Positions 5,101 through 23,585 of a DNA stretch of 64,000 nucleotides are shown here, piece by piece. This DNA is from Schleiferiaceae bacterium (GTDB taxonomy: Bacteria; Bacteroidota; Bacteroidia; Flavobacteriales; Schleiferiaceae), in NCBI GenBank assembly GCA_963715655.1, contig OY970262.1, positions 2,565,236 through 2,629,235 of the forward strand. Reading direction: 5' to 3'. Under the pieces are notes generated by a model. That model made no database searches. It had not been told where the DNA came from and saw only the letters and a list, made by a program, of their open reading frames with translations. Made by a program: the position numbers and the translations under genes. Position 1 is the stretch's first letter. The number at the start of each line of letters is the position of its first letter.

Positions 5101-6606
5101 TGGACGACAATTAATTCTCTTTCATTACCTCCAACTACGGGCATTAAAAAATTTCAAGGATCTAATACTGGTGATAAAGAAAATTTAGCTGGAAATCAGT
5201 TTGACGCTACTGTCGTTAATGATATTGATGTTAATTTATCCCGAAATAATGTAATTTATGTTCATCATAATGAAACTTACCTAAGTAATCCTCAAAACTT
5301 AAAACCCTCAATTAGCAGACTTATAACTAGTTATGGATTTGACTTAGAGTTTAACGGATCTTGTCCTTCTATTGGCAGTACGGTATTAAACAAAACTGAA
5401 TTGGATGGGATTATTGAAGATAGAAACGCTCTAATAGCCTCATCTAAAGGGTTTTTTGATGAAAATGTCGACTTTGGAAATCATATCAATTTATTGGAAG
5501 CAATAGGCTTTTATGAATCGATAGTATTATACGGAGAGGAAGATTTCCCTGACCCTGTTTTTAATGATGATGGTGATCAATTTGCAAGCTTATATAATAA
5601 TATTTTAGGTAATGCACCTTGGATGTCTGACGAGGCTGCCGCTGCGCTAATTATGCAATTGGGTTTTTCTGATGTTATGTTAAACAACATATTGTTGGCA
5701 CACCCACATGTTTTGAGAAATCCTAAAATTATGGACCTCTTAGAGCTATACCGTGATGGCTTTCTTGCTTATATTGATGGAATTAATAATGCAAGGGCGA
5801 ATAATTATACAGATTATGAAAATAAAATGATGTTATTATCAAATTACTCTACCGACAAATTTAAAGCAGTAGAAGAAATGGCCTCATTATTGTTTTTTGA
5901 AGATATCGGCAATGGTCTTTCTGATTTAGATGAACTTATTAGCTTTTATTCTGCTTACGATGAACCTATTTATCAATACAGAAAAGCGACATTAGAACTA
6001 GTTACTGGCGATTATAGTAGCGCTCAAAATACTCTTACTAACTTGAGTGTTCAAAATAATTTTGAAGGAGATGATGAAAAGCTGTTTAATGATTTTAGTG
6101 AATTATTAGCAATTGCGTCAAATGCCAATGGTAATGTAGCAAATTATACTCCCACAGCGAGTGAGGAAATATTTTTAGCGCGGATTGCTGAGGAGCGAGA
6201 CCACCCTTTAACCGGTTTTGCTTATAGTTTTTCACTAACTAAAAAAATGGCGACAGCGACATTGCACGATGAAATACCTAATGATAGATATGATCCCGTC
6301 TATGATTATAACGTAACTTATAATAATAAAAAGAATATAGTTGAAGAGAAAGCGTTAGTCAATCAACAATTGATAAGTTCTTTCTATGTTTATCCCAACC
6401 CAAGTAGCTCTTATTTTAATGTTGTTTCGACAGATATATTGGAAGGGGAAGCAGTGTTATATGATGTGCGGGGAGCTAAATTAAGAACAGTAGTATGCAA
6501 GAATGGCTTAGCTATTTTGCCTTTAACCTCCTTACCATCTGGCATATATGTAATAAAACTTAGTAACAGAATACAGGTGCAAACTCAAAAAGTAATCATT
6601 GATTAA
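2119..6606 (+). CDS. Very large secreted protein with right-handed beta-helix (PbH1-like) repeats and a T9SS C-terminal sorting domain
   Basis: The start is taken at the internal Met (MKKSKFLIVIVLFNCLLSSIWAQ, a signal peptide); the tracked ORF begins at 2056. Repeated NNTF/NxxF beta-helix-like motifs are present. The C-terminus (YPNPSSSYFNVVSTDILEGEAVLYDVRGAKL ... GIYVIKL) matches the Por/T9SS CTD. Confidence 0.8.
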   Translation: MKKSKFLIVIVLFNCLLSSIWAQNAPGVQWTRFDWPRIEPTTNLPQSREKSGEDWWYDHENVFINGQHTGYIAGGFSEGLNRDVNANTYKSLQDELYTCGDRVTPTCTDFEVIGRTTDCTKSLMFEYELNGNMKWCRIYYDGEFTDVQQTSDGGFIAGGYTRNSHVNGNPNAFSNGQLPNQTRLLYNPINSSSNQFLTKNPNVAWNTGSSRVGIVKTDSEGKIQWMHNYGPLEIIGGVSNSIELTTMKAKWVSIVEINSDFWVVAGYEYRTSIGGPVIFGSFLLKLDSQGYVKEKMLLAPQIITVGSAFISLKDVKKGPGSNTLYVAGSFHEENVIPKSYVAKIDITGTPNILWENLFSAQTVRPDPVNPSNTPVYRNSIIHDIEVRGNGNILVPAIVNCYSGDCFSSNNSTNKAELEIHEITSGGSRSVLYNLGEVNAYDLKAGITNTSDGGFAVVSSKGQYDSNGNLILPAPNDPLILSLLPPNTPNCHEDYKAWMSDVFVAKFSSSNSLEWQKTYDSHPNERQSYPYDLKKQECVYEITEDQATGDLVISGNTSHNFDDAYLLKLTGCQNDLNSEPITSVGAAGDEIIISNNTTWNSNKIIRGLVRVQNILIIDGATIQFADKGQSGQESGILIEPGAKLIVRNGATLTSIAGCESSTWSGIKVASNNFIFQSNNNSGQLELDGTINRVTIENADNAIFMGDPYNISANYWSSFGGIVHANGVDFKNNLRDAAFNSFGSTNTNIYYTQYDSYFKNCKFTKTEKYKAGLKSGGSVTIWACHGIDFENCVWDFTGEDYDEQSVQAAIYTVDASFNVTGNVINETASSRFINCNYGIYSFKSWDFPSRVVINNTLFDNNKKGAFLYGASGYRIQNNTFKIPSLPKDEYDLINAYGVYNRSKSSIQFFNNNTFEGIGTGGFNAGVIVSQSYSLPNVIEQNTFKDLYMANESNMDNRSNDQALGVSGLTGLEYHCNYFDNNDINIYVHHQPYPGNSWTTINSLSLPPTTGIKKFQGSNTGDKENLAGNQFDATVVNDIDVNLSRNNVIYVHHNETYLSNPQNLKPSISRLITSYGFDLEFNGSCPSIGSTVLNKTELDGIIEDRNALIASSKGFFDENVDFGNHINLLEAIGFYESIVLYGEEDFPDPVFNDDGDQFASLYNNILGNAPWMSDEAAAALIMQLGFSDVMLNNILLAHPHVLRNPKIMDLLELYRDGFLAYIDGINNARANNYTDYENKMMLLSNYSTDKFKAVEEMASLLFFEDIGNGLSDLDELISFYSAYDEPIYQYRKATLELVTGDYSSAQNTLTNLSVQNNFEGDDEKLFNDFSELLAIASNANGNVANYTPTASEEIFLARIAEERDHPLTGFAYSFSLTKKMATATLHDEIPNDRYDPVYDYNVTYNNKKNIVEEKALVNQQLISSFYVYPNPSSSYFNVVSTDILEGEAVLYDVRGAKLRTVVCKNGLAILPLTSLPSGIYVIKLSNRIQVQTQKVIID

Positions 6607-8233: not shown

Positions 8234-8485
8234 CTATAACTTGTGTAAAGGATGTATATTAATGAACAGAGAAAGAATGCCACTTACTACCTTTTGGTAA
8301 GTGGAATTAGGGTGAACTTCATGAGGTCTTCGAGAGAGTTCTCTAAGACCTCCATAACCTTCATTTTCAAATCGAGCTATGATTTTATAAGCCGTTGGCC
8401 TAGAAATTTCAAAGCTCCGGCAGAGTTCTGTAATGATGTAATTTCCCGTTCTCCATTCGCAGATAAATTCAATTTTTTGTTCCAT
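8234..8485 (-). pseudogene. Transposase N-terminal HTH fragment (IS481/IS3-like), truncated
   Basis: 83 aa, MEQKIEFICEWRTGNYIITELCRSFEISRPTAYKIIARFENEGYGGLRELSRRPH, resembles the N-terminal HTH of a DDE transposase. No catalytic domain follows. Confidence 0.45.
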
Positions 8486-8832: not shown

Positions 8833-11106
8833 ATGTCATTAATAGACAAAGGACTTGAGCATGGGCACATCAAGTTTGATGAAGAAGAAAAATACATCAT
8901 CTATGTAGCTCCAGGCAAACGATACCGCTATACTGATCCCGAAGAACAAGTAAGAACTGAATCTTACTTATCCTTCATTTTCGAATATGGTTACAATCCT
9001 AAGCGCATGAGTCTTGAAGTAACTGTACCTAGAAGAACCCCTAGCGATTTAGCCGACATTGTCATTTTTGAAGATGATGATAAACTCACGCCCTACATAG
9101 TTGTAGAATGTAAAAAGCAAAAGATTTCAGAAGCAGAGTTCAACCAAGCCATTGAGCAAGGTTTCGGAAACGCTGTTTCGCTCAACGCACCTTTCATGCA
9201 GATTACATCAGGCATTAAAACAAATGCCTATGATGTCAAAAACTTTCCTCCACTCGAAAGGGTAAAGAACCTTATTGCAGATATTCCCCGATTTGGTCAA
9301 TCGGGTATTACCAAAGCAAAGTTTTACAAAGGCGCCATTGATGAAGACGGCAATCCTGCTAAAGACATTAAAGTTGTAGAGCAAAGCGACCTAACGAGAG
9401 TTTTTGAGCAAGCGCACCAAGCCCTTTGGGCAGGTGGAAAGCGGAATCCTTCCGAAGCATTTGATGAATTGGATAAACTCATTTTCTGTAAGATTTGGGA
9501 TGAACGTAAAGACCGCAAGCCAGGTCAGCCTTATGCCTTTCAAGAGTTTACAGGCGAACATCCGAACGAATTGCTTGAGAGAGTACAAGCCATTTACAGC
9601 GAAGGAAAAGAGAAAGACCCAGAAGTATTCAAAGAACCAATTCGCTTATCAGCTTCTGAACTTAAAACCATCGTGGGTTATTTATCAGAACTCAACCTCC
9701 ACGATACCGACCTTGACAGCAAAGGCCGAGCATTTGAAACTTTCTTAGGTTCATTCTTTCGTGGTGATTTTGGACAGTACTTTACGCCTCGAGAAGTGGT
9801 AGACTTTATTGTAAAAGTACTGCCCATTAATAACGATAGTTTAGTGCTTGATTCTTCTTGTGGAAGCGGTGGTTTCTTATTGTACGCCTTAGACAAGGTG
9901 AGAAAAAGAGCCGACCAGATGGCCGAAGAAGGCTATTTCAAAAAAGGCTCTACCAAGCACCGCGACTATTGGCACGATTTCGCAGAGCATAACCTCTACG
10001 GTATTGAAATTTCTGAAAGCATTGCCCGTACTGCCAAAATTAATATGATTATTCATGATGATGGCCACACCAATGTAATTGCTGTGGATGGCCTTAATCC
10101 TATTGAAGAAATTGCTCCAGTACCCAACGAAACCGAAAGAGAGAAAGAATGGCGTGAAAAGCTCAATGCCATTTCTATTCAGAAAGTTTCAGGAAACAAA
10201 GGATTTAAAGAAAACAACTTCGATTTCATCATCACCAATCCACCGTTTGGCTCTAGCATCAAACAAACCGAACAAGCCTATCTCAAAAACTACGGCTTGG
10301 GTATTAAAGATGTCAATTGGGTTGACCAACGATTAAAATCCAATTTCAAATTAGGAACACGCACCAGTCAAAGCACTGAAGTGCTTTTTATTGAGCAATG
10401 CCACCGTTTTTTAAAACCAGGCGGTGTGTTAGCAGTGGTTATTCCTGATGGTATTTTGACCAACTCAAGCTCGCAGTATGTGAGAGATTGGATTGAAGAA
10501 CACTACCGCATCATTTCTGTGGTTTCACTACCTCAAACAGCCTTCTCTGCCAATGGTGCAGGAGTTAAAAGCTCAGTTCTCTTCTTAATGAAGTTGGATG
10601 CCAAGCAAACCAAGAAAGTTCAAAACACCAAAGAGAAAATCCAAGATGATTTATTCTTTCAACCCCAATACGAAGCGGAGATTAAGCGGCTTGATAAAGA
10701 GAAAAAACGCATCATTAAAGAGCATGAAGGCTTTGACTACACCAGTATCAATTGGGAATTAGAAGACAATCTAAAAGCCTTAAATGGTGCATCTGCACCT
10801 GAGCAATATGACAAAGCCGCTCGCAAGCTCGCTGAGAAAAGCGAAGAATTTAAAGCATGGAAGTCTGACATTGGTCAACTCTACAATGAGCAGATCAATG
10901 AAGTAAAAGAAAATTTGCAAGACGAGTACCTCAAGCGCATTGGCGAAGAGCTGATAGACTATCCTATCTTAATGTTAATTGCTGAAAATATCGGTTATGA
11001 TACGGTTGGTCGTAAAACAGGGATCAATGAACTTGAGATAATTGCGCCAGAAATAGAAAGGTTTATTACTGACATTAAAACAGGGCAAGACCCTTTTTTC
11101 GTCTAA
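8833..11106 (+). CDS. Restriction-modification enzyme subunit: N-terminal HsdR_N-like PD-(D/E)xK nuclease domain fused to a gamma-class N6-adenine DNA methyltransferase
   Basis: The N-terminal region (DLADIVIFEDDDKLTPYIVVECKKQK) fits the D...ExK motif of the HsdR N-terminal nuclease family. A SAM-binding region (LDSSCGSGGFLLYA) and the catalytic NPPF motif (FDFIITNPPFGS) are present. 757 aa is larger than a canonical HsdM. Confidence 0.8.
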   Translation: MSLIDKGLEHGHIKFDEEEKYIIYVAPGKRYRYTDPEEQVRTESYLSFIFEYGYNPKRMSLEVTVPRRTPSDLADIVIFEDDDKLTPYIVVECKKQKISEAEFNQAIEQGFGNAVSLNAPFMQITSGIKTNAYDVKNFPPLERVKNLIADIPRFGQSGITKAKFYKGAIDEDGNPAKDIKVVEQSDLTRVFEQAHQALWAGGKRNPSEAFDELDKLIFCKIWDERKDRKPGQPYAFQEFTGEHPNELLERVQAIYSEGKEKDPEVFKEPIRLSASELKTIVGYLSELNLHDTDLDSKGRAFETFLGSFFRGDFGQYFTPREVVDFIVKVLPINNDSLVLDSSCGSGGFLLYALDKVRKRADQMAEEGYFKKGSTKHRDYWHDFAEHNLYGIEISESIARTAKINMIIHDDGHTNVIAVDGLNPIEEIAPVPNETEREKEWREKLNAISIQKVSGNKGFKENNFDFIITNPPFGSSIKQTEQAYLKNYGLGIKDVNWVDQRLKSNFKLGTRTSQSTEVLFIEQCHRFLKPGGVLAVVIPDGILTNSSSQYVRDWIEEHYRIISVVSLPQTAFSANGAGVKSSVLFLMKLDAKQTKKVQNTKEKIQDDLFFQPQYEAEIKRLDKEKKRIIKEHEGFDYTSINWELEDNLKALNGASAPEQYDKAARKLAEKSEEFKAWKSDIGQLYNEQINEVKENLQDEYLKRIGEELIDYPILMLIAENIGYDTVGRKTGINELEIIAPEIERFITDIKTGQDPFFV

Positions 11107-11138
11107 GCCCCGATTTAGATGAAGACAGGTTCTTCATT

Positions 11139-12584
11139 TTGAATCGGGGCGAAATCGAATTTAGATTAGACCCACTCTATTTTAGAGCACTAAAGCAAAT
11201 TGAAACTGATATTGTTGAAAAGGCAAAATATCCAGTTCACCCCGTAAGACAAGTTTGTGCTATAAAACGCGGAAAGTTTACGCATAGACCGAGAAATGAT
11301 CCAAAATTGTATGATGGCGAATATCCATTTATTCAGACAGGAGACATTGTTCGTTCAGCGACAACAGGAAATGAAATAACCTACAAGCAAACTCTTAATG
11401 AGTTGGGTAGAATGACCAGTAGATTGGCCTATCCTCCTCAGTTATTAATGACCATTGCTGCCAATATTGGGGTTACAGCCATTCTTGATTACGCATGTTG
11501 CTATCCTGATAGTATTGTCGCTATTGACCCAAAGAATCAGGGATTAAACACTTCAATAGAATACTTAGATGTTTATTTTACTTTGATTCAACCTTATGTT
11601 GAACAGCTTGCCCCTTTTGCAGCACAACGAAATTTAAACAATCAGCAACTCGGAGATATTCCTCTAATTCTGCCCGATAATACCATTCAGCAAAAAGCAA
11701 TTGATAGTTACAAAAAGGCCGTTGAAGACAAGAAAGCCAAAGAAAACCAAGCCCAAGAGCTACTCGCTTCTATTGATGACTACTTACTTACAGAGTTAAG
11801 TATCGTCCTTCCGCCTGAGCCAGAAAATGCAATTGAGAATAGGAAGTTTAGGACTAATTTTTCAAGTGTCACAGGTAACCGCTTCGACCCAAAAAGATAC
11901 AGCACAAGAACGGAGCAACTCTATGATTCAATTCACAATTCTATTTTTCCATTAAGAAGCTTAAAATCCCTTCTTATTCACACCGCATCAGGCCAATGGG
12001 GTGATGAGCCTCATGAGTCTTTTAATGAAAAGCTTTACAAGCAATGCCTTGTTATCAGATCTACAGAATTTGACAATCGATTCAATTTAAAACTTGATAA
12101 TAGCAGGGCAAAATATCGCCTTATAACTAAAACGAAACTTGATAAACTTGATCTGCAACCTTATGACATCCTAGTTGAAAAATCTGGTGGCAGTCCAGAT
12201 CAACCAGTTGGTAGAGCAGCAATTCTTCTACCTGAAATATTTGAAAACAATACGATTTGCTACAGCAACTTCATTCACAAATTCCGTGCTGATCAGTCTA
12301 TTATAGATCCTGAATACTTGTTCGCTTATCTAAAGGTGATTCATAATATCAAGTTGACAGATACTATGCAAAGTCAAACCAATGGAATTAGAAACTTGAT
12401 TATGAGAGAATATTGGAATCAAGAGATTCCTATTCCATCACCCGAAAAACAAAAAGAAATAGCTACTCAGTTTTTCAACCTTAAAAATGAAGCACAAGAA
12501 TTATTCAAAAATGCTGAGTTAGACTTTCAGCAAGCAAAAAAAGAAATTGAGCACTTAATCTTAAATCCTGCAAACAATGACTAA
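11139..12584 (+). CDS. hsdS: Restriction-modification specificity (S) subunit, HsdS-like with two target-recognition domains
   Basis: Two variable TRD-like halves are separated by conserved coiled-coil spacer repeats (LPDNTIQQKAIDSYKKAVEDKKAKENQAQELL and IPIPSPEKQKEIATQFFNLKNEAQELF). TTG start 33 nt after the upstream stop. Confidence 0.8.
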   Translation: MNRGEIEFRLDPLYFRALKQIETDIVEKAKYPVHPVRQVCAIKRGKFTHRPRNDPKLYDGEYPFIQTGDIVRSATTGNEITYKQTLNELGRMTSRLAYPPQLLMTIAANIGVTAILDYACCYPDSIVAIDPKNQGLNTSIEYLDVYFTLIQPYVEQLAPFAAQRNLNNQQLGDIPLILPDNTIQQKAIDSYKKAVEDKKAKENQAQELLASIDDYLLTELSIVLPPEPENAIENRKFRTNFSSVTGNRFDPKRYSTRTEQLYDSIHNSIFPLRSLKSLLIHTASGQWGDEPHESFNEKLYKQCLVIRSTEFDNRFNLKLDNSRAKYRLITKTKLDKLDLQPYDILVEKSGGSPDQPVGRAAILLPEIFENNTICYSNFIHKFRADQSIIDPEYLFAYLKVIHNIKLTDTMQSQTNGIRNLIMREYWNQEIPIPSPEKQKEIATQFFNLKNEAQELFKNAELDFQQAKKEIEHLILNPANND

Positions 12585-13011
12585 AACGATAATAGCCCTT
12601 TGGGGCACAGCCAATATCGGTAAATCTATGACACTAGCTCGCCTTGGCAGACAGTTACAAGCTAATGGTGCTACCACAAATGCTAACATTACAGGTGGAG
12701 ATTATCGAGCCATATTTCAGTATCAAAACAAAACTATTGGCCTTCAAACCTATGGTGATACAGAGCATTTGGTAAACCAAGGATTAACTGAGTTTCAAAA
12801 TCAGCAATGTGACATAATTGCCATTGCTTCTAAATCTTATGGAGCTACCGTTGATACTATTGGAGCATTTGCAGGTCAAAATGGCTATCGCATTATTTGG
12901 TCAAGTCCCTATGAAGTGAGAGATGGCTCCATCACTACTGATACAATTAAGAACTATGCTGCAAGCCACTTGCTTAGAATGGTTGATGATGTAATTGCAG
13001 GTATTCTATAG
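12577..13011 (+). CDS. Small P-loop NTPase/kinase-like protein (144 aa), uncharacterised
   Basis: Walker A-like motif WGTANIGKSMTL near the N-terminus and a hydrophobic-D stretch (CDIIAIAS) resembling Walker B. The ATG overlaps the hsdS stop by 8 nt (AATGACTAA), suggesting translational coupling. Confidence 0.55.
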   Translation: MTKTIIALWGTANIGKSMTLARLGRQLQANGATTNANITGGDYRAIFQYQNKTIGLQTYGDTEHLVNQGLTEFQNQQCDIIAIASKSYGATVDTIGAFAGQNGYRIIWSSPYEVRDGSITTDTIKNYAASHLLRMVDDVIAGIL

Positions 13012-13013
13012 AA

Positions 13014-13856
13014 TTGAATATAATGGGAGAGAAAACTATCACATACCAAAGGCAACTCATAGGCGTAGAAATAAAGCTTGGTTTCTTATACGTTCCGGCA
13101 CAAGCCAGAGACTTGTTGCCCAATGAAAACGGCAAAGTGCAAGTGCTACTCGAAGGAGAAAACAAACCCAAAGCAAAGAGCTACAATGCAGACTATAACC
13201 GCATTTTTGGCCTTACTCCTTTCTTCAAAAAGCACAAACTAGAAAAGGGCAATATTCTCACCGTACAGGTCAGCAATGATCTTATCAAGGTAGAGCTTGC
13301 CAAAACCACCATCATAGAAGATCAGGAAGAAAATGAGCAAGCAGATGTCATTGATATTTCAGGTTTATCATCCCAAGCCAAAGGAAACATTGCCGAAGAC
13401 CGAGTAAAAGAAATCATCTTACTCAATAGTCAAGGCTTGCTCAATGTCTATCGTCCCGTTATCGATACCAGGGGCATTGATATGATTGTATTGAAAGAAG
13501 GTTTGTTTCATTCCATTTACCTACAAGTAAAATCACGTTTTCAGGTAAAAAGCAATGGTCAATTAATACTCACCATCAGCAAGAATACTTTTAAACCACA
13601 TCACGCTCATTATTTAGTAGGCATTAGTTACGAACCTGATGTTGCAGAAATAGGTGAACATATACTCTTTATGCCTTCCAAAAAGGTAATAGAAATGGCC
13701 ACCATAGTAAAGAACAAAGGCAAAGAATATTACCGCATCAATGTTTCTTACAACAGCGCCAAAAGTGGTAAATACAAAAAGTACTTTATGAGCAAGCAAG
13801 ACTTTGTAGAAAGCCTACTCGAAAAATTTGAAGCCATGAGCGAAATGATAAAATAA
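13014..13856 (+). CDS. Putative restriction-type nuclease: N-terminal B3/EcoRII-N-like DNA-binding pseudobarrel plus C-terminal PD-(D/E)xK-like core
   Basis: The N-terminus (IGVEIKLGFLYVPAQARDLLPNENGKVQVLL ... YNRIFGLTPFFKKHKLEKGNILTVQV) has the typical B3/EcoRII-N pattern. The C-terminal half (VYRPVIDTRGIDMIVLKEG ... IYLQVKS) resembles D..(E/Q)xK nuclease strands. The start lies 3 nt after the previous stop. Confidence 0.45.
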   Translation: MNIMGEKTITYQRQLIGVEIKLGFLYVPAQARDLLPNENGKVQVLLEGENKPKAKSYNADYNRIFGLTPFFKKHKLEKGNILTVQVSNDLIKVELAKTTIIEDQEENEQADVIDISGLSSQAKGNIAEDRVKEIILLNSQGLLNVYRPVIDTRGIDMIVLKEGLFHSIYLQVKSRFQVKSNGQLILTISKNTFKPHHAHYLVGISYEPDVAEIGEHILFMPSKKVIEMATIVKNKGKEYYRINVSYNSAKSGKYKKYFMSKQDFVESLLEKFEAMSEMIK

Positions 13857-13867
13857 CCCACTTACCT

Positions 13868-15388
13868 ATGAGATTAGAAGGACTATTACAAGAATCATTA
13901 GGCGGCTTTGTCTGCATCCGTGGGTATGCCCCGCTTGGTGATTTAGCACGTATTTCAGAGTCAGACCCGGACTACCAAAGAAACCTGATTGAAGAACAAC
14001 GAGAAGAGATTGTTCACTTTTTAGAAAACAAAGAATACCTCTTCTTTCCAGAAGTAATTCTATCCTACACGCTCAAGTATGATTTTGCAACGGGTGTGTC
14101 AGGTATCAATCCATTAAGAGACATTCTTGACCGCAAGAAATTCGCTTCTAATGTTGATGGTATTCGCTTTAACTCTACAAAGTCAGGAGTTCATAAGGTA
14201 ATAGTTGACATCACAGAATCTTTCCTAAAATCAGATACACCCTTCTTTCGCATAGATGGCAACCACCGTTTGAGTGCTTCACAGGAGAAAACGGCCTTCA
14301 ACGAGTACGTTACTCCTTTTTGCTTGATTCTATTTCCTGAAGGAAATCAATCAGAAGAATACAAAAGGGTCATATTTCATAACATCAATTCAAAATCAGT
14401 TCCACTTACATCAGAAGAAAATCTAAGGCTCATTCTTGATGAAGAAAACATATTCTCTGATGAAAAGCTCAAAACCCAACCCAGTTTTGGTGTGGAGTTT
14501 TTCTTAGCACGTAAGTTGAAAGACAGCATCGATCTCCATGTTTTAAAACACATAGCTAATTCCTTTAAACAGGTAAAACACAATGGGGATGAAATAGAAA
14601 ACAAACGAACCGTTCTACTCAAACTCTTTAAGCTTCTTCTTGATAAAGAAGCTGTTGAAGGCAATGATGAAGCCATCAACATGGTGCATTCGGCTATAGT
14701 GGCAGTAAACGAACTGTATGGCAAGTATGCCAAGCTAGCCGCTTGTCATTCTCATGCCTTGTTCATTGCTTTTGTCTATTACGAGCTACACCTTGAAAAG
14801 GGGGATTATCGTGCATCATTCAAAAATTGGGTGCTGTACAACCACATGTACAATGTAGATGACATTTCACCATCCAATTTGGTTAGTGTTTACGATACCA
14901 TACTCGAATCTCGCAAGCGACACATCTTCGTTTCTATGCAATTCTCAGATGATACAAAGAATCATTACACAGCCATTAAGAATGCCATAGATCAAGTAAA
15001 CCAAAAGCATAAACTTGACCTAGAACTAAAGGAAATTAGAATAGATGAAATGAACAAAGGGTACTCCTACACCATTTCAGACGAAATACTACAGCTAATA
15101 AACAACACAGGCTTGCTTATTGCAGACCTCACGCATGGCAACAGAAATGTTTACCATGAGTTAGGCTTCCTTATGGGGCTTAATGTAGGGAGAGACTTAA
15201 AACACAACAACTTCATACTCTTAATGAAAAATGACCCCAACGGAAAAACAGATGCTGAAGTAGGGTTTAACATTAGAGACTTTCAGCAAATCAGATTCAA
15301 TGAAGCAATAGAAATAACCGCACGTTTAGTTGAGTCATTGGAGGTCTATTACAAATTAAAACCAGCAGGGAATGAAGTAGAAAACTAA
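13868..15388 (+). CDS. Two-domain protein: N-terminal ParB/Srx-fold DGQHR/DUF262-like domain and C-terminal NDT/SLOG/TIR-like Rossmannoid domain
   Basis: The N-terminus contains FFRIDGNHRLSAS (compare the DGQHR motif of DndB and DGQQR of DUF262/GmrSD). The C-terminus has HIFVSMQFSDD ... LLIADLTHGNRNVYHELGFLMG, which resembles the D-x-T...FE-x-GY signature of nucleoside 2-deoxyribosyltransferase-like/TIR-like domains. It is the last gene of the operon, 12 nt after the previous stop. Confidence 0.5.
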   Translation: MRLEGLLQESLGGFVCIRGYAPLGDLARISESDPDYQRNLIEEQREEIVHFLENKEYLFFPEVILSYTLKYDFATGVSGINPLRDILDRKKFASNVDGIRFNSTKSGVHKVIVDITESFLKSDTPFFRIDGNHRLSASQEKTAFNEYVTPFCLILFPEGNQSEEYKRVIFHNINSKSVPLTSEENLRLILDEENIFSDEKLKTQPSFGVEFFLARKLKDSIDLHVLKHIANSFKQVKHNGDEIENKRTVLLKLFKLLLDKEAVEGNDEAINMVHSAIVAVNELYGKYAKLAACHSHALFIAFVYYELHLEKGDYRASFKNWVLYNHMYNVDDISPSNLVSVYDTILESRKRHIFVSMQFSDDTKNHYTAIKNAIDQVNQKHKLDLELKEIRIDEMNKGYSYTISDEILQLINNTGLLIADLTHGNRNVYHELGFLMGLNVGRDLKHNNFILLMKNDPNGKTDAEVGFNIRDFQQIRFNEAIEITARLVESLEVYYKLKPAGNEVEN

Positions 15389-15451: not shown

Positions 15452-15477
15452 CGAAGCCCTTTACGGGCTTTTTTTGT
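15452..15477 (+). terminator. Rho-independent terminator closing the 8833-15388 operon
   Basis: Hairpin aagccc-tttac-gggctt followed by a run of T residues, 64 nt after the stop of 13868-15388. Confidence 0.6.
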
Positions 15478-15522
15478 TGTGTTGTAAGCTCCCCCTGTAA
15501 GCTCCCCTTTTTTAGTACGGTT

Positions 15523-16398
15523 CTAAAGTAGACTATTTTCTTTATTAGTTTCATTAATCAAAATATCCCTTGGTGCAGTGGAGCGTAGCGGAACGGAACC
15601 AAGGGATATTTTTCGGTTTTTGTTTCTATAGGCCACAGGGCTTATGCCACCCAGCGCATCGTGTGGTCGTTCATGGTTGTAATCTTCTACCCAAGATTCG
15701 GTCACTTCTCTTACTTGATCTATTGAACTAAAGAGATAAGCATCTAAAATATGCCTGCGATAGGTTTTATTAAAACGCTCTATTAGCGCATTTTGAGTAG
15801 GCTTACCGGGCTGTATATATTTAAACTCAATACCGTGCATCACGCTCCATTGAGTCGTTAATTTAGCTATAAATTCTGGACCATTATCCATACGTAGTTT
15901 TTGCGGCTTTCCGTGTTTGTTTATCAAGTGGTTTAATACCCAAATTACTCTGCTACTTTTTAAAGAATAATCTGTTTCTATAAACAGTACTTCTCGATTG
16001 TAGTCATCTATTACATTAAAGCTTCGGAACTTCCTTCCATGCTCTAAAGCATCGCTCATAAAATCAATACTCCACGTATGCGTAAAGCACTCGGGTATTA
16101 TTATGGGTTCTTTTACCCGCGCTGGTAAACGCTTTTTTACTTTCCTTCTTAATGGCAAGCCCATCTGCTTATATATCCTATGTAGCCGCTTGTGATTGAT
16201 TAATTCCTCCTTATTACGAAGACGGTAATAACTCTTCCAAAAGCCTTCGCGTGGATGTTTTATACTCAACTGCTTTAATAATAGCTCTACGCTGCTATCA
16301 TCCTTTATTGATTGATAAGCAATACTACTGCGACTAGTCTTTAATACGCGACACGCCTTGCTTATGCCGCGCGGATAAGTGCTTTTTATGCTTTCCAT
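15523..16398 (-). CDS. IS3-family transposase OrfB (DDE integrase core)
   Basis: 291 aa with an rve-like integrase core (WSIDFMSD ... DNGPEF ... [10 protein letters not shown]). Expressed by -1 frameshifting from orfA. Confidence 0.9.
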
Positions 16399-16421
16399 TA
16401 TTTCTCTCTTTTGGCAAGGCT

Positions 16422-16688
16422 TTAAAGCTTTTTTTCAATAATGTGCTTGGCGATATCTAACTCTAAAGCTAAATCGGTGTACATGCGTTTTAGCTTCGCA
16501 TTTTCTTCTTCTAGCTTCTTTATGCGCTTTAGCTCACTAGCTTCCATGCCGCCATAGCGTTGTCGCCATTTATAAAATGTTGCTTTGCTTACGCCATGCT
16601 CTCGGCTAATCGTAGCTACATCTTTGCCTTGTTCAAACTCCTTGAGAATACTGGCAATCTGGTTTGGGGTGAATTTGCTCTTTTTCAT
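16422..16688 (-). CDS. IS3-family transposase OrfA (HTH plus leucine zipper)
   Basis: 88 aa, [47 protein letters not shown] with a coiled-coil tail. The slippery heptamer A_AAA_AAG sits just before its stop. Confidence 0.9.
16428..16434 (-). promoter_or_regulatory. Programmed -1 ribosomal frameshift heptamer A_AAA_AAG of the IS3 element
   Basis: The plus strand reads ctttttt, which is AAAAAAG on the coding (minus) strand, located at the codons ...GAA AAA AAG CTT TAA at the end of orfA. Confidence 0.6.
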
Positions 16689-16789: not shown

Positions 16790-18900
16790 GTGTTGTTATT
16801 ATATTGCAAGGGTGTGGTCAAATAATGTGATTGGTGTGTTTGTCAAAGGTTGGGAGGTATGGTTTATATGGGTAGAAAGATATATTGATAATAAAAGGAA
16901 TGGTTTAAGGTGAATTTCAAACGCAATTCGTGTTTTTGATTGCTGAAAGTATCCATGTGTTAATTGTTAAAAGGTAATCACACTGAACCTAAAACTTACA
17001 AGTAATATTGTAAGTAGGTGTTATCATGGTATTGTAGGGGTGTGTTTCACGGGTTTGATAGGTGTGGTTTAGGTGTGGTAGAAGGGTGGTTAACTGGTTT
17101 TATAGGTGTGTTTAACAAGCGGCATAGGTGTGGTTTAGGTGTGGCAGGATGATGATTATCTGATTGTATAGGTGTGTTTAACCAATAGGGGTAGGGTCTT
17201 GACATGTCTAGTAGGGGTGCAACATGTGCTTTCCAATATTTGAATTTACTAGGTGCAAGGTTTGTCCTATGGTTAAAACCTGCTTTCATTAATGAAAAAT
17301 GATTTAGAGCCATTGTGCGGGTTTGTGGAATCTGCAATTACTATTTTTAGCTGTTACACTACGTTTTAATTGGTTTTTGTGAAACTAATATGAGATGCAG
17401 GAGTCTCATGGCCATGTGTTTGTCAATTGATGAGTTCATTCATCAAGTATCTCAGTTATGTTTAGGTACGGCAGGGGGGGGTGTTTCACGGGTTATATAG
17501 GTGTGTTTAGGTGTGGCAAAAAAGTGGTTAACTGGTTTCATAGGTGTGTTCCACGGGTTGTATAGGTGTGTTTTAGGTGCGGTAGAAGGGTGGTATAACT
17601 TGCCTTATAGGTGTGTTTTAAAGGCGGCATAGGTGTGGTTTAGGTGTGGCAGCATGATGGTTATCCGTTTGCATAGGTGTGTTTAACCAATAGCGGTAAG
17701 GTCTTGACATGTCCAGAAGGGGTGCAAAATGTGCTTTCCAATATCTGAATATACTAGGAGCAAAGTTTGTCCTATGGTTAACACCTAATTTCATTAATAG
17801 AAATGATTTAGAGCCATTGTGCGGGTTTTTAGAATCAGCAATTACGATATTTTAACTGTTACAATATGCTTTAATTGGTTTTTGTAAAACTAATATGAGA
17901 TGTAGGAGTATCATGGCCATGTCTTTGTCAATTGATGAGTTCATTCATCCAGAGTCTCGGGTATATTTAGGTACGGCAGGGGTGTATTTCACGAGTAGTA
18001 TAGGTGTGTTTTAGGTGTGGTTAAAAAGTGGTTGACCGGTTGCATTGGTGTGTTCCACGGGTTGTATAAGTATGTTTTAAGTGTGGTAGAAAGGTGGTTA
18101 ACTGGTTTTACAGGTGTGTTTCACGTGTTGTATAGGTGTGTTTTAGGTGTGGTAGAAAGGTGGTTAACTGGCCTTATAGGGGTGTTTCACAAGCGCATAG
18201 GTGTGGTTTAGGTGTGGCAGCATGATGGTTATCCGTTTGCCTAGGTGTGTTTAACCAATAGCGGTAAGGTCTTGACATGTCCAGGAGGGGTGCAACATAT
18301 GCTTTCCAATATTTGAATTTACTAGGTGCAAGGTTTGTCCTATGGTTAACACCTGATTTTATTAATGAAAAATGATTTAGAGCCATTGTGCGGGTTTATG
18401 GTATTGGCTATAAGGGTTTTAAATATGGTATCTCAGTTGGTTTCAGTGAGACTTATAGGAGTGAGATAGTGTATTATGACTGTTATCTCGATTGAAAAGT
18501 CTCTTAAAGTTTCGCAAGGTGTTTAGGTATGGCAGGGTGTGTTTCACGGGTCACATGGGTGTGTTTTAAGTGTGGCAGAAAGTTGGTTAACCAGTTTGAT
18601 AGGTGTGTCTATTTTATTGTGGTAGGATTTTGCGATGATTTCTAGGGTGCAAAGAGAGTGTTCCAATAAATATATCCAATCGTTAACCTCTGGTTTTATT
18701 AATTAAAGAAGATATAAAGCCATTGTACGGGTTTGTTGAGTCTTATTTTACGGATTGGAGTTGTTAAATGCGGAACTACATCTTACTTGGTCTTAGTGAG
18801 ACTTATAGGGGTCAGATAGTGTTTTAAGGTTTTTTATTTTATCGTCTGGAGGGTGTTTCTTGAATTGCCATTGGGTGTGTTTAGGTGTGGCTGGTATGAT
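16790..18900. repeat. Array of ~500-570-bp complex tandem repeats (3 full plus about 2 degenerate copies), each containing 11-13-bp GT-rich iterons
   Basis: The anchor motif cttgacatgtc recurs at ~17199, ~17704 and ~18272. Each unit contains multiple (a)taggtgtg(g/t)ttt iterons, some spaced by 11 bp (ataggtgtggtttaggtgtggcag), a ttgaca...tatttg promoter-like segment, and a palindrome ttgatgagttcattcatcaa. Degenerate copies extend to ~18900. Confidence 0.8.
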
Positions 18901-19188: not shown

Positions 19189-21012
19189 TTAAGCTGCTTT
19201 TGTGTAATTGTTGTGTTCGTGTATTAACTTTCCATCGGTTTTTAAAGAGTTGATATAACGTTCAGCGGTCTTCTGGTTAATTTCTAGTGCATTGGCAATT
19301 GTCAAATACCCTTGTCGGGTAAAATTATCGGGTAAATTTTTAAAGAATTGAGCCACCTTATCCGATGGTTTTTTTGGAGCAACACCTTTAAGTTTGGCAA
19401 ATATTTGAAGTGTATGTTCAAAAACTGTTTTTGCCACCTCTAATGCAATATCTACATCCTCATTACTCGGAATCAATTCGTTTTTGAAGTCACCATTATC
19501 CATCATTCTTAATACAGTTAAAATCATACAAACTCTATAAGCGAATGATGCTAATCGTCTTCCGCTTGCTGTGGTGTCTTCTCCTAACTCAGCATTAGCT
19601 CTTTCTAGTAAGATTGGGAACTCCTGATTAAATCTATCCAGTAAATAGTTAGTTTCAGTAAAATTGACCTCCCCAAGGTCGTGCAGTCGCTTTACAAAAC
19701 CACAATATCTATTTCCTAACACTTTAAAGTAATCTTCTGTGCTAACCGATTTTCTTTTCTCAAGCTTAAGGGGCGTCCATAACCTACCTATCTCAATTTG
19801 ATAAAATTGAAACCTACTAAAAAAACCATCTTGCACATTTGGTATAAGATTGGCAACCTGATTATCCGTTCCGCTTAAAAGTGTTGAGAGCTTTGGGGTA
19901 TCAATTTCGGAATATTCGCTGTTAGTGGATCTAAATGAGGTGATGGTTTCGTGTTCAAACGCCCTCCTTAACATTTCGGAGAAGTTACCCATTTCACTTT
20001 TCACTGAATTTGCTAGAGTGTCAGCTTCTGTCTCAAATAGGCATCCAATACCGTTGTTTTCAGAAAGGTTTTTTTTAAATCCAGCTGAAGTGTTGTTTGC
20101 GGGTATAAAGTGTAATTTTCTAGCAGGTTCAATCAGAGGAGCAACACCCTTATTATTAGATTCTTTAAATAGTGCTTTATCGATTTCGTACTGCGCCCAT
20201 TCTTGCTTGGTTTGCTCCAATAACATTTTGTGATATGGCATAGCTAATAATTTGCATAAGGATAATTTACCTTTTCCAGCAGATGCAGGGCCTGTTATAA
20301 ATAAGAATAGGTTTGGAAAAATCTTTCTATCGCGATAAATACCAGAAACATTAAACATCAATGAACCTAATGTAACAAGCGATCCAAGGAATAATAAATC
20401 TCGCTCTTGCTCACCTTCATGTGTTTTAAAGATATCAGTTAAGAGCGTTGGTAAATTCTCAAAAACAGCGTTTGGGATAAATGGCGGTCGTTTTTGTTTT
20501 ATTTTTAAGTTGCTTTGCATCTTATTGCTAAGTAGTTGTTTGGCATGTTCAGTATGTTTGGATGTAATAGAATTAGCGGTGCTCCTTTTTTTTGATTTTT
20601 TAGTGCTAATCTCTAAGTTAGCTTCCTTAGCGTAAGAGAATAAAGTCCCTATTGAAATTCCACCCATATTACGCTTGAGCGCTTGGTTAAATTTCGCGTC
20701 ACTTTCCTTACTATTATAAGCTGGGTGAAACTGACTGATTTTGTGAAAGTATGGCCGTCCATCTTCCTTAAATTCATCAACTAATGCAAAAGCTATATTC
20801 CGCCAACGTTCTTCCGTAGTAGTTAAATCAAGGGAGTGATGCTCAATCTGGTTTATTATTAATTCCACCTGTTCTCTAGTTGAATTGAACTTTTCATTTT
20901 TAGAAGAAAAGGCTGTTTCCGACTTTTTTAAAGTAGGTCTATCATTTTTATTAAATCTCGACTCGTTTTCTATTCGTTTTAGATACTCTTCTGGGTTGAA
21001 TTTAATTTTCAT
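19189..21012 (-). CDS. DUF3987-type P-loop (helicase-like) protein with N-terminal PriCT-2-like region; replication/mobilisation protein of Bacteroidetes mobile elements
   Basis: Walker A motif FITGPASAGKGKLS. The N-terminus (WRNIAFALVDEFKEDGRPYFHKISQF) resembles a primase C-terminal PriCT-2 domain. It sits in a typical position next to a Prim-Pol gene. Confidence 0.65.
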   Translation of the reverse strand: MKIKFNPEEYLKRIENESRFNKNDRPTLKKSETAFSSKNEKFNSTREQVELIINQIEHHSLDLTTTEERWRNIAFALVDEFKEDGRPYFHKISQFHPAYNSKESDAKFNQALKRNMGGISIGTLFSYAKEANLEISTKKSKKRSTANSITSKHTEHAKQLLSNKMQSNLKIKQKRPPFIPNAVFENLPTLLTDIFKTHEGEQERDLLFLGSLVTLGSLMFNVSGIYRDRKIFPNLFLFITGPASAGKGKLSLCKLLAMPYHKMLLEQTKQEWAQYEIDKALFKESNNKGVAPLIEPARKLHFIPANNTSAGFKKNLSENNGIGCLFETEADTLANSVKSEMGNFSEMLRRAFEHETITSFRSTNSEYSEIDTPKLSTLLSGTDNQVANLIPNVQDGFFSRFQFYQIEIGRLWTPLKLEKRKSVSTEDYFKVLGNRYCGFVKRLHDLGEVNFTETNYLLDRFNQEFPILLERANAELGEDTTASGRRLASFAYRVCMILTVLRMMDNGDFKNELIPSNEDVDIALEVAKTVFEHTLQIFAKLKGVAPKKPSDKVAQFFKNLPDNFTRQGYLTIANALEINQKTAERYINSLKTDGKLIHEHNNYTKAA

Positions 21013-21040
21013 AATTTTTTTTTGGATTTAGACTAAGGAG

Positions 21041-21958
21041 TTAGTGATTAAGATATTTTGGATTTATATAGACTTCAGGATCGTGGCATAAAAAACAAGC
21101 TCTAGACACATCTTTCCCAGAGGGATCGGCTTCTAAACTGAAATTTTGTTTTAGAAAAATGGAAACTGCTTGAAAGTACTTCTCATGGGTTACCTCTTTT
21201 GTCAACTCAATTGGAATAATCCATTTAAGACCATTTCCTGAAGGAGATTTAAACAGTAGTTCGGTTTCAAATTCCTCAATCCCTAACAGTGTAGCACGTG
21301 TTTCAGATACGTTTGGTAAGTCATCAAAATCTATAGTTAAAAGGTTTGAATGGTGGATTAAACCAGCATTAGATCGTGTACTAAATAAACCGGAGAAAGT
21401 AACATAGTCCAACCCCGTTGATTTAAATTTAGAGGCTTGATTTTTCAAACTAAATGCTCTGAGCTTTCTAGTTACATCAGGGTATTTATTTCCTTTAATA
21501 AGCTCATACACCTGAAGGGTGTTAAGGGTGCTTTTTGGGGTGGTATTATGGATGGGAGCGTTATAGTAACTAAACAGCGGCATTGCTTCTCCCTTTAGTG
21601 TAGGTGGTGATAAGTTGGGTGCTACCTCTAGTATTTCAGTAAGAGGAATTCTTAAGTTCATTTCATCGTTAAGAATATTAGATAATGCATTTTCGTTATC
21701 ACCATAGTGCAGTTTAGCAAAATCAAAACAGTTACCTGCTGCAATGGAATTATCCGTATCGGAGTGCATTGCCACATTATCTACTATTTTAATTTTCAGA
21801 GATTTTTTACCATAATTAAATGGATTTCTTGTAGGCTCACAGATGGTGCCATTTAACTTTAGGACTGTTTCACACGGGTAGTACTTCCTGAGTACATGTC
21901 CATAAATATTTAACCCGTAATATGTCTGTTTTAAAATAGCGGTATTAATTTGGTTCAT
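21041..21958 (-). CDS. Primase-polymerase (AEP/BT4734-like Prim-Pol) domain protein
   Basis: The C-terminal region (LTIDFDDLPNV ... FKSPSGNGLKWIIPI ... SGKDVSRACFLCHDPEV) resembles the acidic and SxxGxGxH motifs of bifunctional primase-polymerase domains. Co-oriented and adjacent to the DUF3987 gene. Confidence 0.5.
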   Translation of the reverse strand: MNQINTAILKQTYYGLNIYGHVLRKYYPCETVLKLNGTICEPTRNPFNYGKKSLKIKIVDNVAMHSDTDNSIAAGNCFDFAKLHYGDNENALSNILNDEMNLRIPLTEILEVAPNLSPPTLKGEAMPLFSYYNAPIHNTTPKSTLNTLQVYELIKGNKYPDVTRKLRAFSLKNQASKFKSTGLDYVTFSGLFSTRSNAGLIHHSNLLTIDFDDLPNVSETRATLLGIEEFETELLFKSPSGNGLKWIIPIELTKEVTHEKYFQAVSIFLKQNFSLEADPSGKDVSRACFLCHDPEVYINPKYLNH

Positions 21959-21969
21959 AGGTAGAGGTT

Positions 21970-22239
21970 TTAAAGGTTACTGTTTTGTTGACTTTGGTCT
22001 AACATTTCATCGATATCCTTTTGACGATAGAATATTTTACCTTGAACTTTGGAAAACTTAATAGTTCCATTTTCCCTCCACGAGGCGAGGGTTCGTTGAG
22101 AAACATTTAGAAGTTTCATCAAACTAGAATTGTCGTAAATCTTACTAGGAGATTTATTTGACTTAATGTACTCGAAAATCGAATCGAGTTGCTGCTGATA
22201 ACGGGTGTACTCTTCTTTAGGTACTGCTGAAAAATTCAT
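21970..22239 (-). CDS. Excisionase-like HTH DNA-binding protein (Bacteroidetes mobile-element Xis/HTH_17 type)
   Basis: 89 aa with LMKLLNVSQRTLASWRENGTIKFSKVQGKIFYRQKDIDEML, a typical MerR/excisionase-like HTH found upstream of Prim-Pol/DUF3987 genes in Bacteroidetes integrative elements. Confidence 0.65.
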   Translation of the reverse strand: MNFSAVPKEEYTRYQQQLDSIFEYIKSNKSPSKIYDNSSLMKLLNVSQRTLASWRENGTIKFSKVQGKIFYRQKDIDEMLDQSQQNSNL

Positions 22240-22349
22240 CTTTTATTATTTTTAATGAGGGCACAAGATGAATGTGATTTTCAATAATTAGGAATTGCTA
22301 ATATCATATATGAGTGATATTAATAAAAAAAGTACTGTCTGTCAATGAT

Positions 22350-23585
22350 TTACAATTTTTTAAAAATCTCCAAAATTGTTTCCAACTCAGATCTAATTGG
22401 GCTTAGTCGGATTGTATTGTATTTAAGTTCTTGCATGTTTCCCCTATGATCTTTAAATCGAAAATTACTTGCGAAAAAAAGTACCGCCTCCTTTTGATGT
22501 TCAAAAATGTTTAAACCGTAAAATAACCTTATCAAAAGAGCGGCCTGCTTAATAGTCAAGCTTGTATTTCTAGCAGAATTAGAATTTTGAATATTTAATT
22601 CAAGCAGTCTATAAAAGACTGCAGCAGCTTTAATTCGGCAAAAATTGTTGATTTCGAAGAAATTACTTGAAGTGCTTAGCATGTTTGGATAGCTTGACTC
22701 TTCATATTTTAAAAGTTTTGGTAAATCAACTTCTGAAGTAGACAATTGGGAAAAGTATTTCTGTTTATGAACTGTAAACAAATCCTTTTGAACTTGTATA
22801 GGATTAAGATTATTTTGAATAGCTCTTTCACGACTATCAAAAAATTCTTTTTCATACCGTTCAATCAGGAATTTCACCAAGTTGGAAATATCAAAGTTCG
22901 CTTTGTAAATTGCATGTATAGGAAAGTAAACGAAGTTATCTTCATGTAAATTTAAAATCTCAACTATTGCATCCTTTGGACGCATTTCAACGATGGCTTT
23001 TAATTTTTCTAAAAATGGAAATATTCTCTGTTTAACCCAAAAATCATCAAAATTTGAAACGCTATAATTCATAAGCTGTTTCTTAAAGAAAGCTATGTTA
23101 GATTTTTCATTAAAAAGAAATGGTAAGGTTCTAATTACCTGTTTATCTATGTAGTGACTACCAAAAACGTCCCCCTGGCTATTGTAAGATTCTTGAGTGA
23201 AATTATTGTTACCACCTTTTCTCATTACATCTGCCGCAAAAACGGAAAGTAGAATAGGGTAGTCCCTATCTATCCAAGGGGTCATTCCTAAATGCACAGG
23301 CCAAACAAACCTATTGCTTGAATCATTAACCATTCCTGTAATGGTCGGATTATTATGGAGAGTGTTATTTATCTCCCAGTTTTGTAAAGATTTTAGCAAC
23401 AGAGACTTTAAACCTGTGAAATCATCAATTTTGAAACTAGTAAGATTCAATGTCCTGAGATCTTCAACGCAATTTGTGAAGTTGAAATGATTTCGGATTG
23501 CCGTATTAATATCGTCCACAAAATAGGTAAGATTATGTTTTTCAATCAATTCGTCCAGCACTGTGTCAAGCGTTTTATCATTCAT
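22350..23585 (-). CDS. Hypothetical protein (411 aa) leading the Xis/Prim-Pol/DUF3987 gene string
   Basis: Long uninterrupted ORF co-oriented with the downstream mobile-element genes. No recognisable motif. Confidence 0.45.
   Translation of the reverse strand: MNDKTLDTVLDELIEKHNLTYFVDDINTAIRNHFNFTNCVEDLRTLNLTSFKIDDFTGLKSLLLKSLQNWEINNTLHNNPTITGMVNDSSNRFVWPVHLGMTPWIDRDYPILLSVFAADVMRKGGNNNFTQESYNSQGDVFGSHYIDKQVIRTLPFLFNEKSNIAFFKKQLMNYSVSNFDDFWVKQRIFPFLEKLKAIVEMRPKDAIVEILNLHEDNFVYFPIHAIYKANFDISNLVKFLIERYEKEFFDSRERAIQNNLNPIQVQKDLFTVHKQKYFSQLSTSEVDLPKLLKYEESSYPNMLSTSSNFFEINNFCRIKAAAVFYRLLELNIQNSNSARNTSLTIKQAALLIRLFYGLNIFEHQKEAVLFFASNFRFKDHRGNMQELKYNTIRLSPIRSELETILEIFKKL

Follow-up and report, generated by a model that had tools for sequence, protein, structure and literature searches.

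In this study, we examined a gene of a Schleiferiaceae bacterium that lies in a stretch of 64,000 nucleotides of contig OY970262.1 (positions 2,565,236 to 2,629,235 of the forward strand; assembly GCA_963715655.1). This whole stretch is referred to as the window, and all positions given for the operon and its surroundings are counted within it. The gene, at 13868..15388 on the + strand, was confirmed as an open reading frame (ORF) with an ATG start and a product of 506 aa, as the original prediction, made from the DNA alone, had stated. The product was designated T506. Its gene is the last of a tightly packed operon of five genes with minimal spacers (8833-15388). The first gene (8833..11106, + strand) encodes a 757-aa nuclease-methyltransferase, designated M, in which Pfam models recognised an N-terminal PD-(D/E)xK domain (HSDR_N_2) fused to a gamma-class N6-adenine methyltransferase. 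The second gene (11139..12584, + strand) encodes a 481-aa HsdS-type protein, designated S, with two target recognition domains (TRDs; Methylase_S in Pfam; Specificity_I in PADLOC, 3.8e-77). M has the nuclease residues D75 and E92-C-K94, methyltransferase motif I at aa 340-349 and NPPF at aa 469-472; A74-D75...E92-C-K94, motif I and NPPF were conserved across 63 M orthologues. The best match of M in the PDB was RM.BsaXI (1.9e-35). With nuclease and methyltransferase in one ORF and a separate two-TRD S, the two partners have the layout of type IIB restriction-modification (RM) systems. No HsdR, the helicase-nuclease subunit of type I RM systems, was found in the 64,000-nt window.

A hypothetical protein of Roseivirga seohaensis was 98% identical to T506. 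In a sequence search, full-length homologues numbered more than 1274, each with about 490-545 aa, and the family comprised more than 1200 clusters at 90% identity. All homologues with a named source were labelled 'hypothetical', and a precomputed Pfam domain was present in none. Conservation was determined in two alignments, one of 30 homologues (42-81% identity) and one of 77 homologues (down to about 30% identity). The motif strings quoted in the original prediction were all present in T506, namely FFRIDGNHRLSAS (aa 126-138), HIFVSMQFSDD (aa 352-362) and ADLTHGNRNVYHELGFLMG (aa 419-437). They are far beyond chance, since they fall among the most conserved columns across homologues. In both alignments, Q37-R38, FFPE 59-62, R128-IDGNHRL-S136, F170-HNIN-K176 and E183 were invariant or at least 95% conserved, as were F354, M357, F359, ADL 419-421, N427-V428, E431 and G433 in the C-terminal part. 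The AlphaFold model of T506 had a pLDDT of 79.6. A DGQHR-type ParB/Srx domain, a helical domain and an NDT/TIR-like domain follow each other along the chain. The middle domain (aa ~196-345; 14453..14902, + strand) was all-helical, with a pLDDT mostly of 80-96 and no assignable family. PDB sequence searches with T506, with the full-length profile and with the C-domain profile returned nothing meaningful.

The N-terminal part had been predicted to belong to the ParB/Srx fold of the DGQHR (DndB) and DUF262 (GmrSD) families. The domain at aa 1 to ~195 (13868..14452, + strand) has a predicted ParB/sulfiredoxin fold and the complete set of invariant DGQHR-family motifs: Q37-R38, D130-G-N-H-R134 (with N for Q) and F170-HNIN. 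The first of these (13976..13981, + strand) corresponds to the 'QR' motif of DUF262/DGQHR domains and was invariant in both alignments. The second is the core of IDGNHR (aa 129-134; 14252..14269, + strand), a variant of the DGQHR/DGQQR/GxxR nucleotide-binding loop; this loop was invariant among the 30 homologues, and among the 77 homologues R128 and D130-L135 were conserved in at least 95% and I129 in at least 80%. The third, FHNINSK (aa 170-176; 14375..14395, + strand), is the remaining conserved motif of DGQHR domains, and PLT-EE comes next. The DGQHR model was matched by all 30 members of the T506 alignment, with a best E value of 1.1e-10 and all scores below the cut-off; T506 itself scored 27.5 bits in TIGR03187 (DGQHR), below the curated cut-off of 58.85. 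The DpdB model was matched by 14 of the 30 members. These results indicate that the N-terminal half is a DGQHR-type ParB/Srx domain with intact predicted nucleotide-binding motifs (QR, DGNHR and FxNIN). The DGQHR side of the prediction was therefore supported by the 30 matches and the motif set, whereas the curated cut-offs were missed and the DUF262 side received only a GmrSD_N match of E=0.042 in Pfam, and no DUF1524 or HNH domain was found.

DndB and DpdB thus form the best-matching family of T506. Like T506, they are associated with modification genes of an RM-like system but, unlike T506, they have no NDT/TIR-like domain. The conserved neighbours of T506 did not include dnd or dpd genes and were only the RM-fusion methyltransferase and HsdS. 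In GmrSD, BrxU, SspE and DndI the effector is an HNH (DUF1524) nuclease, whereas T506 has an NDT/TIR-like domain instead. T506 also differs from this group in its DGNHR loop, for which the DGQHR/DpdB models outscore DUF262, and in its coupling to an M-S pair, as these proteins are stand-alone or linked to phosphorothioation.

The C-terminal domain (aa 346-497; 14903..15358, + strand) had been likened to nucleoside 2-deoxyribosyltransferase (NDT)- and TIR-like domains. Its first strand, IFVSMQF (aa 353-359; 14924..14944, + strand), resembles the 'FISY' of TIR beta-A, and F354, M357 and F359 were invariant. The C-terminal quoted motif, aa 419-437 (15122..15178, + strand), comprises strand 3, a loop and the opening of a helix with E431, and was aligned to VYFEAG of an NDT-like family. 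Glu431 (15158-15160, + strand), the invariant putative catalytic residue, is the first residue of the helix after strand 3, so that T506 has the flavodoxin-like fold with a Glu at the helix start that marks NDT-like proteins. In NDT, DNPH1 and TIR enzymes, a conserved Glu is the nucleophile or the catalytic base, and NDT enzymes are base-exchanging glycosyltransferases with a covalent Glu intermediate. Direct comparisons were weak. A Foldseek search against the PDB gave no match at E <=0.001 and only weak matches to TIR, MilB and DNPH1, the SPARTA TIR being among the top ones, and PF05014 was matched by only 3 of 30 T506 members, with E values of 0.012 or weaker and below the gathering threshold.

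A family that bridges this distance was obtained from a 302-aa gene adjoining a fused T506 relative. The protein encoded by this gene contains a domain that matched the T506 C-domain profile (hhalign 96.6%). In the family derived from it, designated A4, PF05014 was matched by all nine aligned homologues (best 5.5e-7); the A4 member with a reported score had 24.8 bits against a gathering threshold of 28.8, and one A4 homologue matched the CAP12/Pycsar TIR model. Profile-profile comparison of the T506 C-domain with A4 gave a probability of 99.2% (E=1.4e-19, 130 columns), and the alignment paired NVYH-E431-LG of T506 with the invariant VYF-E-AG of A4. An HMMER search with the C-domain profile over 1.84 billion cluster representatives yielded 3048 at E <=1e-3. 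Since A4 matches PF05014 and aligns on Glu431, the T506 C-domain is placed by sequence comparison in the NDT/TIR-like assemblage, with its invariant Glu at what would be the catalytic position of NDT, DNPH1 and TIR enzymes. The earlier assignment was thus sustained through the A4 bridge and the invariant E431, but not by PF05014 itself, whose threshold was not reached.

We investigated the genomic setting of T506 in species-representative genomes (one genome per GTDB species). T506 relatives were present in 169 of about 185,000 such genomes, and neighbourhoods were counted in the best 80 of these 169 species. The 80 loci span Bacteroidota, Alpha-, Beta- and Gammaproteobacteria, Bacillota, Thermotogota, Planctomycetota, Verrucomicrobiota, Acidobacteriota, Nitrospinota, Desulfobacterota, Deinococcota, Spirochaetota and Armatimonadota, and the T506 loci cover at least 12 phyla. 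In 72 of the 80 loci, T506 was closely preceded by an M homologue with 40-86% identity; loci without an M match were mostly on short contigs or cut close upstream of T506. Unbiased clustering of the neighbouring ORFs found nothing conserved beyond M and S. In 59 of 78 loci, the ORF directly 5' of T506 was a member of the merged M/S cluster (HsdS in the typical order), and in 43 of those 59 it overlapped T506 by exactly 4 nt, which is a signature pointing to translational coupling of T506 to hsdS. An HsdR homologue was absent within 10 kb of T506 in 78 of the 80 loci. A type I RM system with a distant HsdR was therefore rejected, as no HsdR was found either in the window or within 10 kb at these loci.

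The arrangement of the three genes varied in some loci. A spirochaete genome and one viral contig (L050, L086) had the order M-T506-S instead of M-S-T506, and two loci (L006, L026) had two-gene versions with M and S fused. Five IMG/VR contigs carried T506, two of them with M alongside. McrB-like AAA_5, SF1 helicase, SbcC-like, Mrr-like and GmrSD genes were found as defence-gene neighbours of T506, together with integrases, and by this gene content the T506 loci lie in defence islands. Among plasmid relatives of M, the only one with more than 40% identity was a degenerate M::T506 fusion in Leisingera, and T506 was absent beside the 20 plasmid relatives with at most 34% identity; the linkage of T506 is therefore confined to a single clade of M. 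Rank correlation of bit-scores to the window proteins gave no signal that T506 co-evolves with M or with S (rho of about -0.07 and -0.11), but this comparison is uninformative because the scores saturate at this divergence.

Fusion proteins provided further evidence for a connection between these partners. Two single-chain fusions, P0240 (1192 aa) and P0245 (1199 aa), which belong to different 50%-identity clusters, contain HSDR_N_2, a methyltransferase-like region, one TRD, a DGQHR/DndB domain and an NDT/TIR-like domain in one chain; all three genes are thus joined in at least two lineages. P0240 was aligned to M over residues 16-225 and 331-432, while its residues 693-1182 covered nearly all of T506 (E=4e-22). 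PADLOC recognised its methyltransferase, specificity and TIR parts, and the Pfam DndB gathering score (29.1 bits) was passed only by P0240 and P0245, with 31.2 and 33.7 bits. In both fusions the S-adenosylmethionine motif I is degenerate (NSQYGQL or NSEFGQI, versus CGSGGF), and motif IV reads SIPPF or SIPPL versus NPPF. In locus L087 the fusion (2828-6406 of that locus) is preceded by an HsdR-like gene (Helicase_C and EcoEI_R_C) and a 302-aa gene with a Zn-ribbon and an NDT-like domain; patatin/TPR-S, ThsB_TIR and an integrase come after it. The Leisingera fusion is a 747-aa coding sequence annotated as 'N-6 DNA methylase' on the Leisingera thetidis plasmid NZ_CP109788.1 (328057-330300). It joins residues 114-503 of the window M (60% identity) in frame to residues 126-497 of T506, with S and the T506 N-terminus deleted, and seems to be a copy of the system that has decayed. 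Given the single-chain (Rosetta-stone) fusions and the translational coupling, it is very likely that T506, M and S act as a single complex.

About ten further proteins (P0251-P0261) with a divergent T506 homologue segment were considered as C-domain fusions to a TRD, to an HSDR_N_2/M N-terminus or to an ABC ATPase. They were rejected, as an identical C-terminus of about 175-190 residues stands on unrelated N-termini. They are probably assembly chimeras from one sample, and could alternatively be real rearrangements in one strain.

We then compared the T506 system with known systems. Type IIB BsaXI and BcgI have the same layout as the partners, with a PD-ExK and gamma-class N6-adenine methyltransferase chain and a separate two-TRD S. 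BsaXI is fully active as RM plus S, and its activity has been reconstituted from these two alone (PMC9159934); no third subunit has been described for it, whereas T506 would be one in the present system, in which M is a predicted nuclease. In its predicted fold class and its putative catalytic Glu, T506 resembles Retron-Eco1 (Ec86), Cap12/PycTIR, the TIR-APAZ of SPARTA, and ThsB. Retron-Eco1 and the TIR NADases are defence effectors restrained by a partner that senses nucleic acid, but their sensors (retron reverse transcriptase-msDNA, Argonaute, cyclic nucleotides) differ from the one proposed for T506, and no significant direct sequence match of T506 to the Retron-Eco1 effector or to TIR NADases was found. 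T506 can also be likened to PrrC and RloC, which are latent toxic effectors inside a type I RM operon. In EcoprrI-PrrC, the effector is associated with the RM complex and is activated when restriction is blocked. However, PrrC, in which an ABC-ATPase is joined to an anticodon nuclease, has no relationship to T506 in sequence or fold, and HsdR was not found near T506 at 78 of the 80 loci.

M and S resemble MAD2 (1.7e-90) and MAD5 (2.5e-17) of MADS in NCBIfam, far below the equivalog cut-offs. MADS requires MAD6-8 (bioRxiv 10.1101/2023.03.30.534895). In the five operon proteins, PADLOC and NCBIfam gave no match to the mad6-8 models and only mad2- and mad5-like matches. Membership of MADS was therefore rejected because MAD6-8 are absent, and related loci contained no extra conserved gene. 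MANTIS/Gao_RL was rejected for its different architecture of AAA+ ATPases with a helicase-nuclease. The combination of a ParB/DGQHR and an NDT/TIR domain fixed to a type IIB-like RM-S pair was not present in PADLOC 2.0, Pfam or NCBIfam, and no description of it was found in the searchable literature, the coverage of which did not extend to a potentially relevant 2015 Nucleic Acids Research survey on nucleotide-centric conflict systems. Within these sources, the earlier statement that no such protein had been described was borne out. Every component type is known, and what is new is the combination, a putative RM-linked effector of the ParB family in which the effector domain has been exchanged. 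T506 loci are currently annotated as 'orphan' type I M and S pairs plus a hypothetical protein, so that none of the models searched in PADLOC, Pfam and NCBIfam reveals the module.

We tentatively favour the explanation that T506 is the third, physically coupled part of a compact three-gene, methylation-based defence module, in which it would serve as a nucleoside triphosphate (NTP)-gated sensor of DNA or of its modification, coupled to an N-glycosidase effector. The module is probably a new anti-phage effector module. The nuclease and methyltransferase motifs of M are conserved and RM plus S suffices in BsaXI, so T506 would be an added function and would replace neither the restriction nor the modification activity. 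In the proposed mechanism, the M-S core would recognise the site and mark self. The DGQHR/ParB-like domain would act as an NTP-dependent DNA switch that reports unmodified foreign DNA or a blocked RM complex. The C-domain, once released as an N-glycosidase, would most likely hydrolyse NAD(P)+ or nucleotides, and the outcome would be a metabolic, abortive-infection-type back-up to restriction cleavage.

Previous reports are consistent with these steps. ParB-fold domains are NTP-dependent DNA switches that gate a fused nuclease by modification in GmrSD/BrxU, SspE and DndI, and the DpdB version powers DpdA base exchange (PMC13251355, PMC11662687, PMC10164549, PMC12839542). In Retron-Eco1, DNA methylation changes the nucleic-acid partner of the NDT-like N-glycosidase and so triggers it to hydrolyse NAD(P)+ (PMC12673091). 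The suggestion that DUF262/ParB-like proteins in R-M loci serve as cell-death modules is a long-standing one (PMC3632139). If the favoured explanation holds, T506, M and S form a previously unrecognised three-gene defence module present in at least 12 phyla. It would extend the GmrSD/SspE/DndI design of a ParB switch with a nuclease to a metabolic effector, and would mean that restriction-modification carries its own second line of defence. It would also provide a new handle on ParB-fold NTPases that read the modification state of DNA.

A different, rather unlikely explanation is that T506 acts on DNA itself at the sites chosen by S, in a DpdB/DpdA-like manner, either as an N-glycosidase on unmethylated foreign sites (a 'restriction glycosylase') or as the installer of a second, non-methyl mark. 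The best matches of its N-domain, DGQHR in 30 of 30 members and DpdB in 14 of 30, are proteins of modification arms, and NDT-type chemistry with a covalent Glu would suit the invariant Glu431. DpdB is the ParB-like ATPase needed for the exchange of bases in DNA by DpdA (PMC10164549, PMC12839542). The single-chain fusions keep DGQHR-NDT with degenerate methyltransferase motifs and have an adjacent HsdR-like gene, and this degeneration would fit a different self-mark. On the other hand, the methyltransferase motifs in the window are intact, so that a second mark is not needed there, and no modified-base biosynthesis genes were conserved near T506. To our knowledge, no NDT- or TIR-family enzyme is a DNA glycosylase, and none turned up in the searches. 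Defence effectors with this fold that have been characterised act by hydrolysing NAD(P)+ or free nucleotides (PMC12673091; matches to SPARTA, MilB and DNPH1). A more specific form, which we regard as somewhat more doubtful again, is that T506 is a sequence-directed, single-chain analogue of DpdB plus DpdA. Here the ParB-like NTPase would open the DNA and the Glu nucleophile would remove or swap the base at HsdS-selected sites, which would explain why the fusions keep DGQHR-NDT while their methyltransferase motifs decay. If T506 were directed to DNA, this would be new enzymology for the NDT/TIR fold, and either a new route of DNA hypermodification or a class of 'restriction glycosylase'.

We give still less credence to the idea that T506 is a DndB-like regulator, whose DGQHR domain would bind DNA or M-S and tune methylation or restriction while the C-domain would be a CARF/SLOG-type small-molecule sensor and no enzyme. 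The prototype of the DGQHR proteins, DndB, negatively regulates the dnd modification genes (PMC4507180, PMC3632139), and the M-S core of T506 loci looks self-sufficient from its conserved motifs and the BsaXI precedent (PMC9159934). Weak CARF2 matches were found in 9 of 30 T506 members (best 4e-5), and a DxTHG-like string, 'DLTHG', is present. An independent, stand-alone type IV-like GmrSD analogue that is merely co-located with RM genes in defence islands is very improbable: DUF262/GmrSD and Mrr-like genes adjoin T506 loci, and no M was detected within 8 kb of the T506 gene of one viral contig (L085), but the same M clade precedes T506 at 72 of 80 loci while other neighbours vary, most M-less loci are truncated, and both the hsdS overlap and the fusion proteins speak for a common unit.

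The two remaining genes of the operon lie between S and T506 on the + strand. The first (12577..13011) encodes a 144-aa P-loop protein with the Walker A motif GTANIGKS and a weak AAA_22 match, and the first 8 nt of the gene lie within the end of hsdS. The second (13014..13856) encodes a 280-aa protein in which a C-terminal PD-(D/E)xK-like pattern was seen by eye (E..., IDMIV, LQVKS), with a weak PADLOC PDC-M02A match. Neither protein yielded a solved or curated relative. Among the 80 loci, the 144-aa gene was present only in L001 and L057, and the 280-aa gene only in L001-L003 and L057. L001-L003 are the closest Bacteroidota loci, and in L057 the pair sits downstream of T506. As lineage-specific inserts, the two genes look like accessories that accompany the system as a pair. 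The operon is closed by a terminator-like hairpin (15453-15471) and a T-run (15453..15481 in all, + strand), 65 nt past the T506 stop codon.

A distant M-S pair was observed on the Klebsiella pneumoniae plasmid NZ_LR890357.1, with 29% identity to the window M. A 263-aa hypothetical gene abuts S there (its start shares one base with the S stop), and two DUF262 genes come next. The 263-aa protein was examined as a relative of the T506 C-domain and rejected as unrelated. ParB-fold proteins downstream of HSDR_N-methyltransferase and S pairs may be a broader theme.

In the window, an IS3-family element (15523-16688, - strand; orfA with HTH_Tnp_1, orfB with rve) lies directly downstream of the operon and an IS481-like helix-turn-helix fragment (8234-8485, - strand) directly upstream, so that the RM-like operon is flanked by transposable-element remnants. 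Arrays of 22-nt and 66-nt direct repeats, GGTGTGTTT... and ATAGGTGTG..., occupy 17039-18252, which is non-coding and has a very strong GC skew of +0.45. As the repeats stand between the IS3 element and a primase/helicase-like gene, they may be iterons or the origin of an adjacent mobile element. The region at 19189-23585 (- strand) contains this 607-aa primase/helicase-like gene (DUF3987 and PriCT_2), a BT4734-like_N gene, an 89-aa excisionase-like ORF and a 411-aa ORF, which had no Pfam match at 1e-3 and may encode an integrase. These genes look like part of an integrative mobile element.

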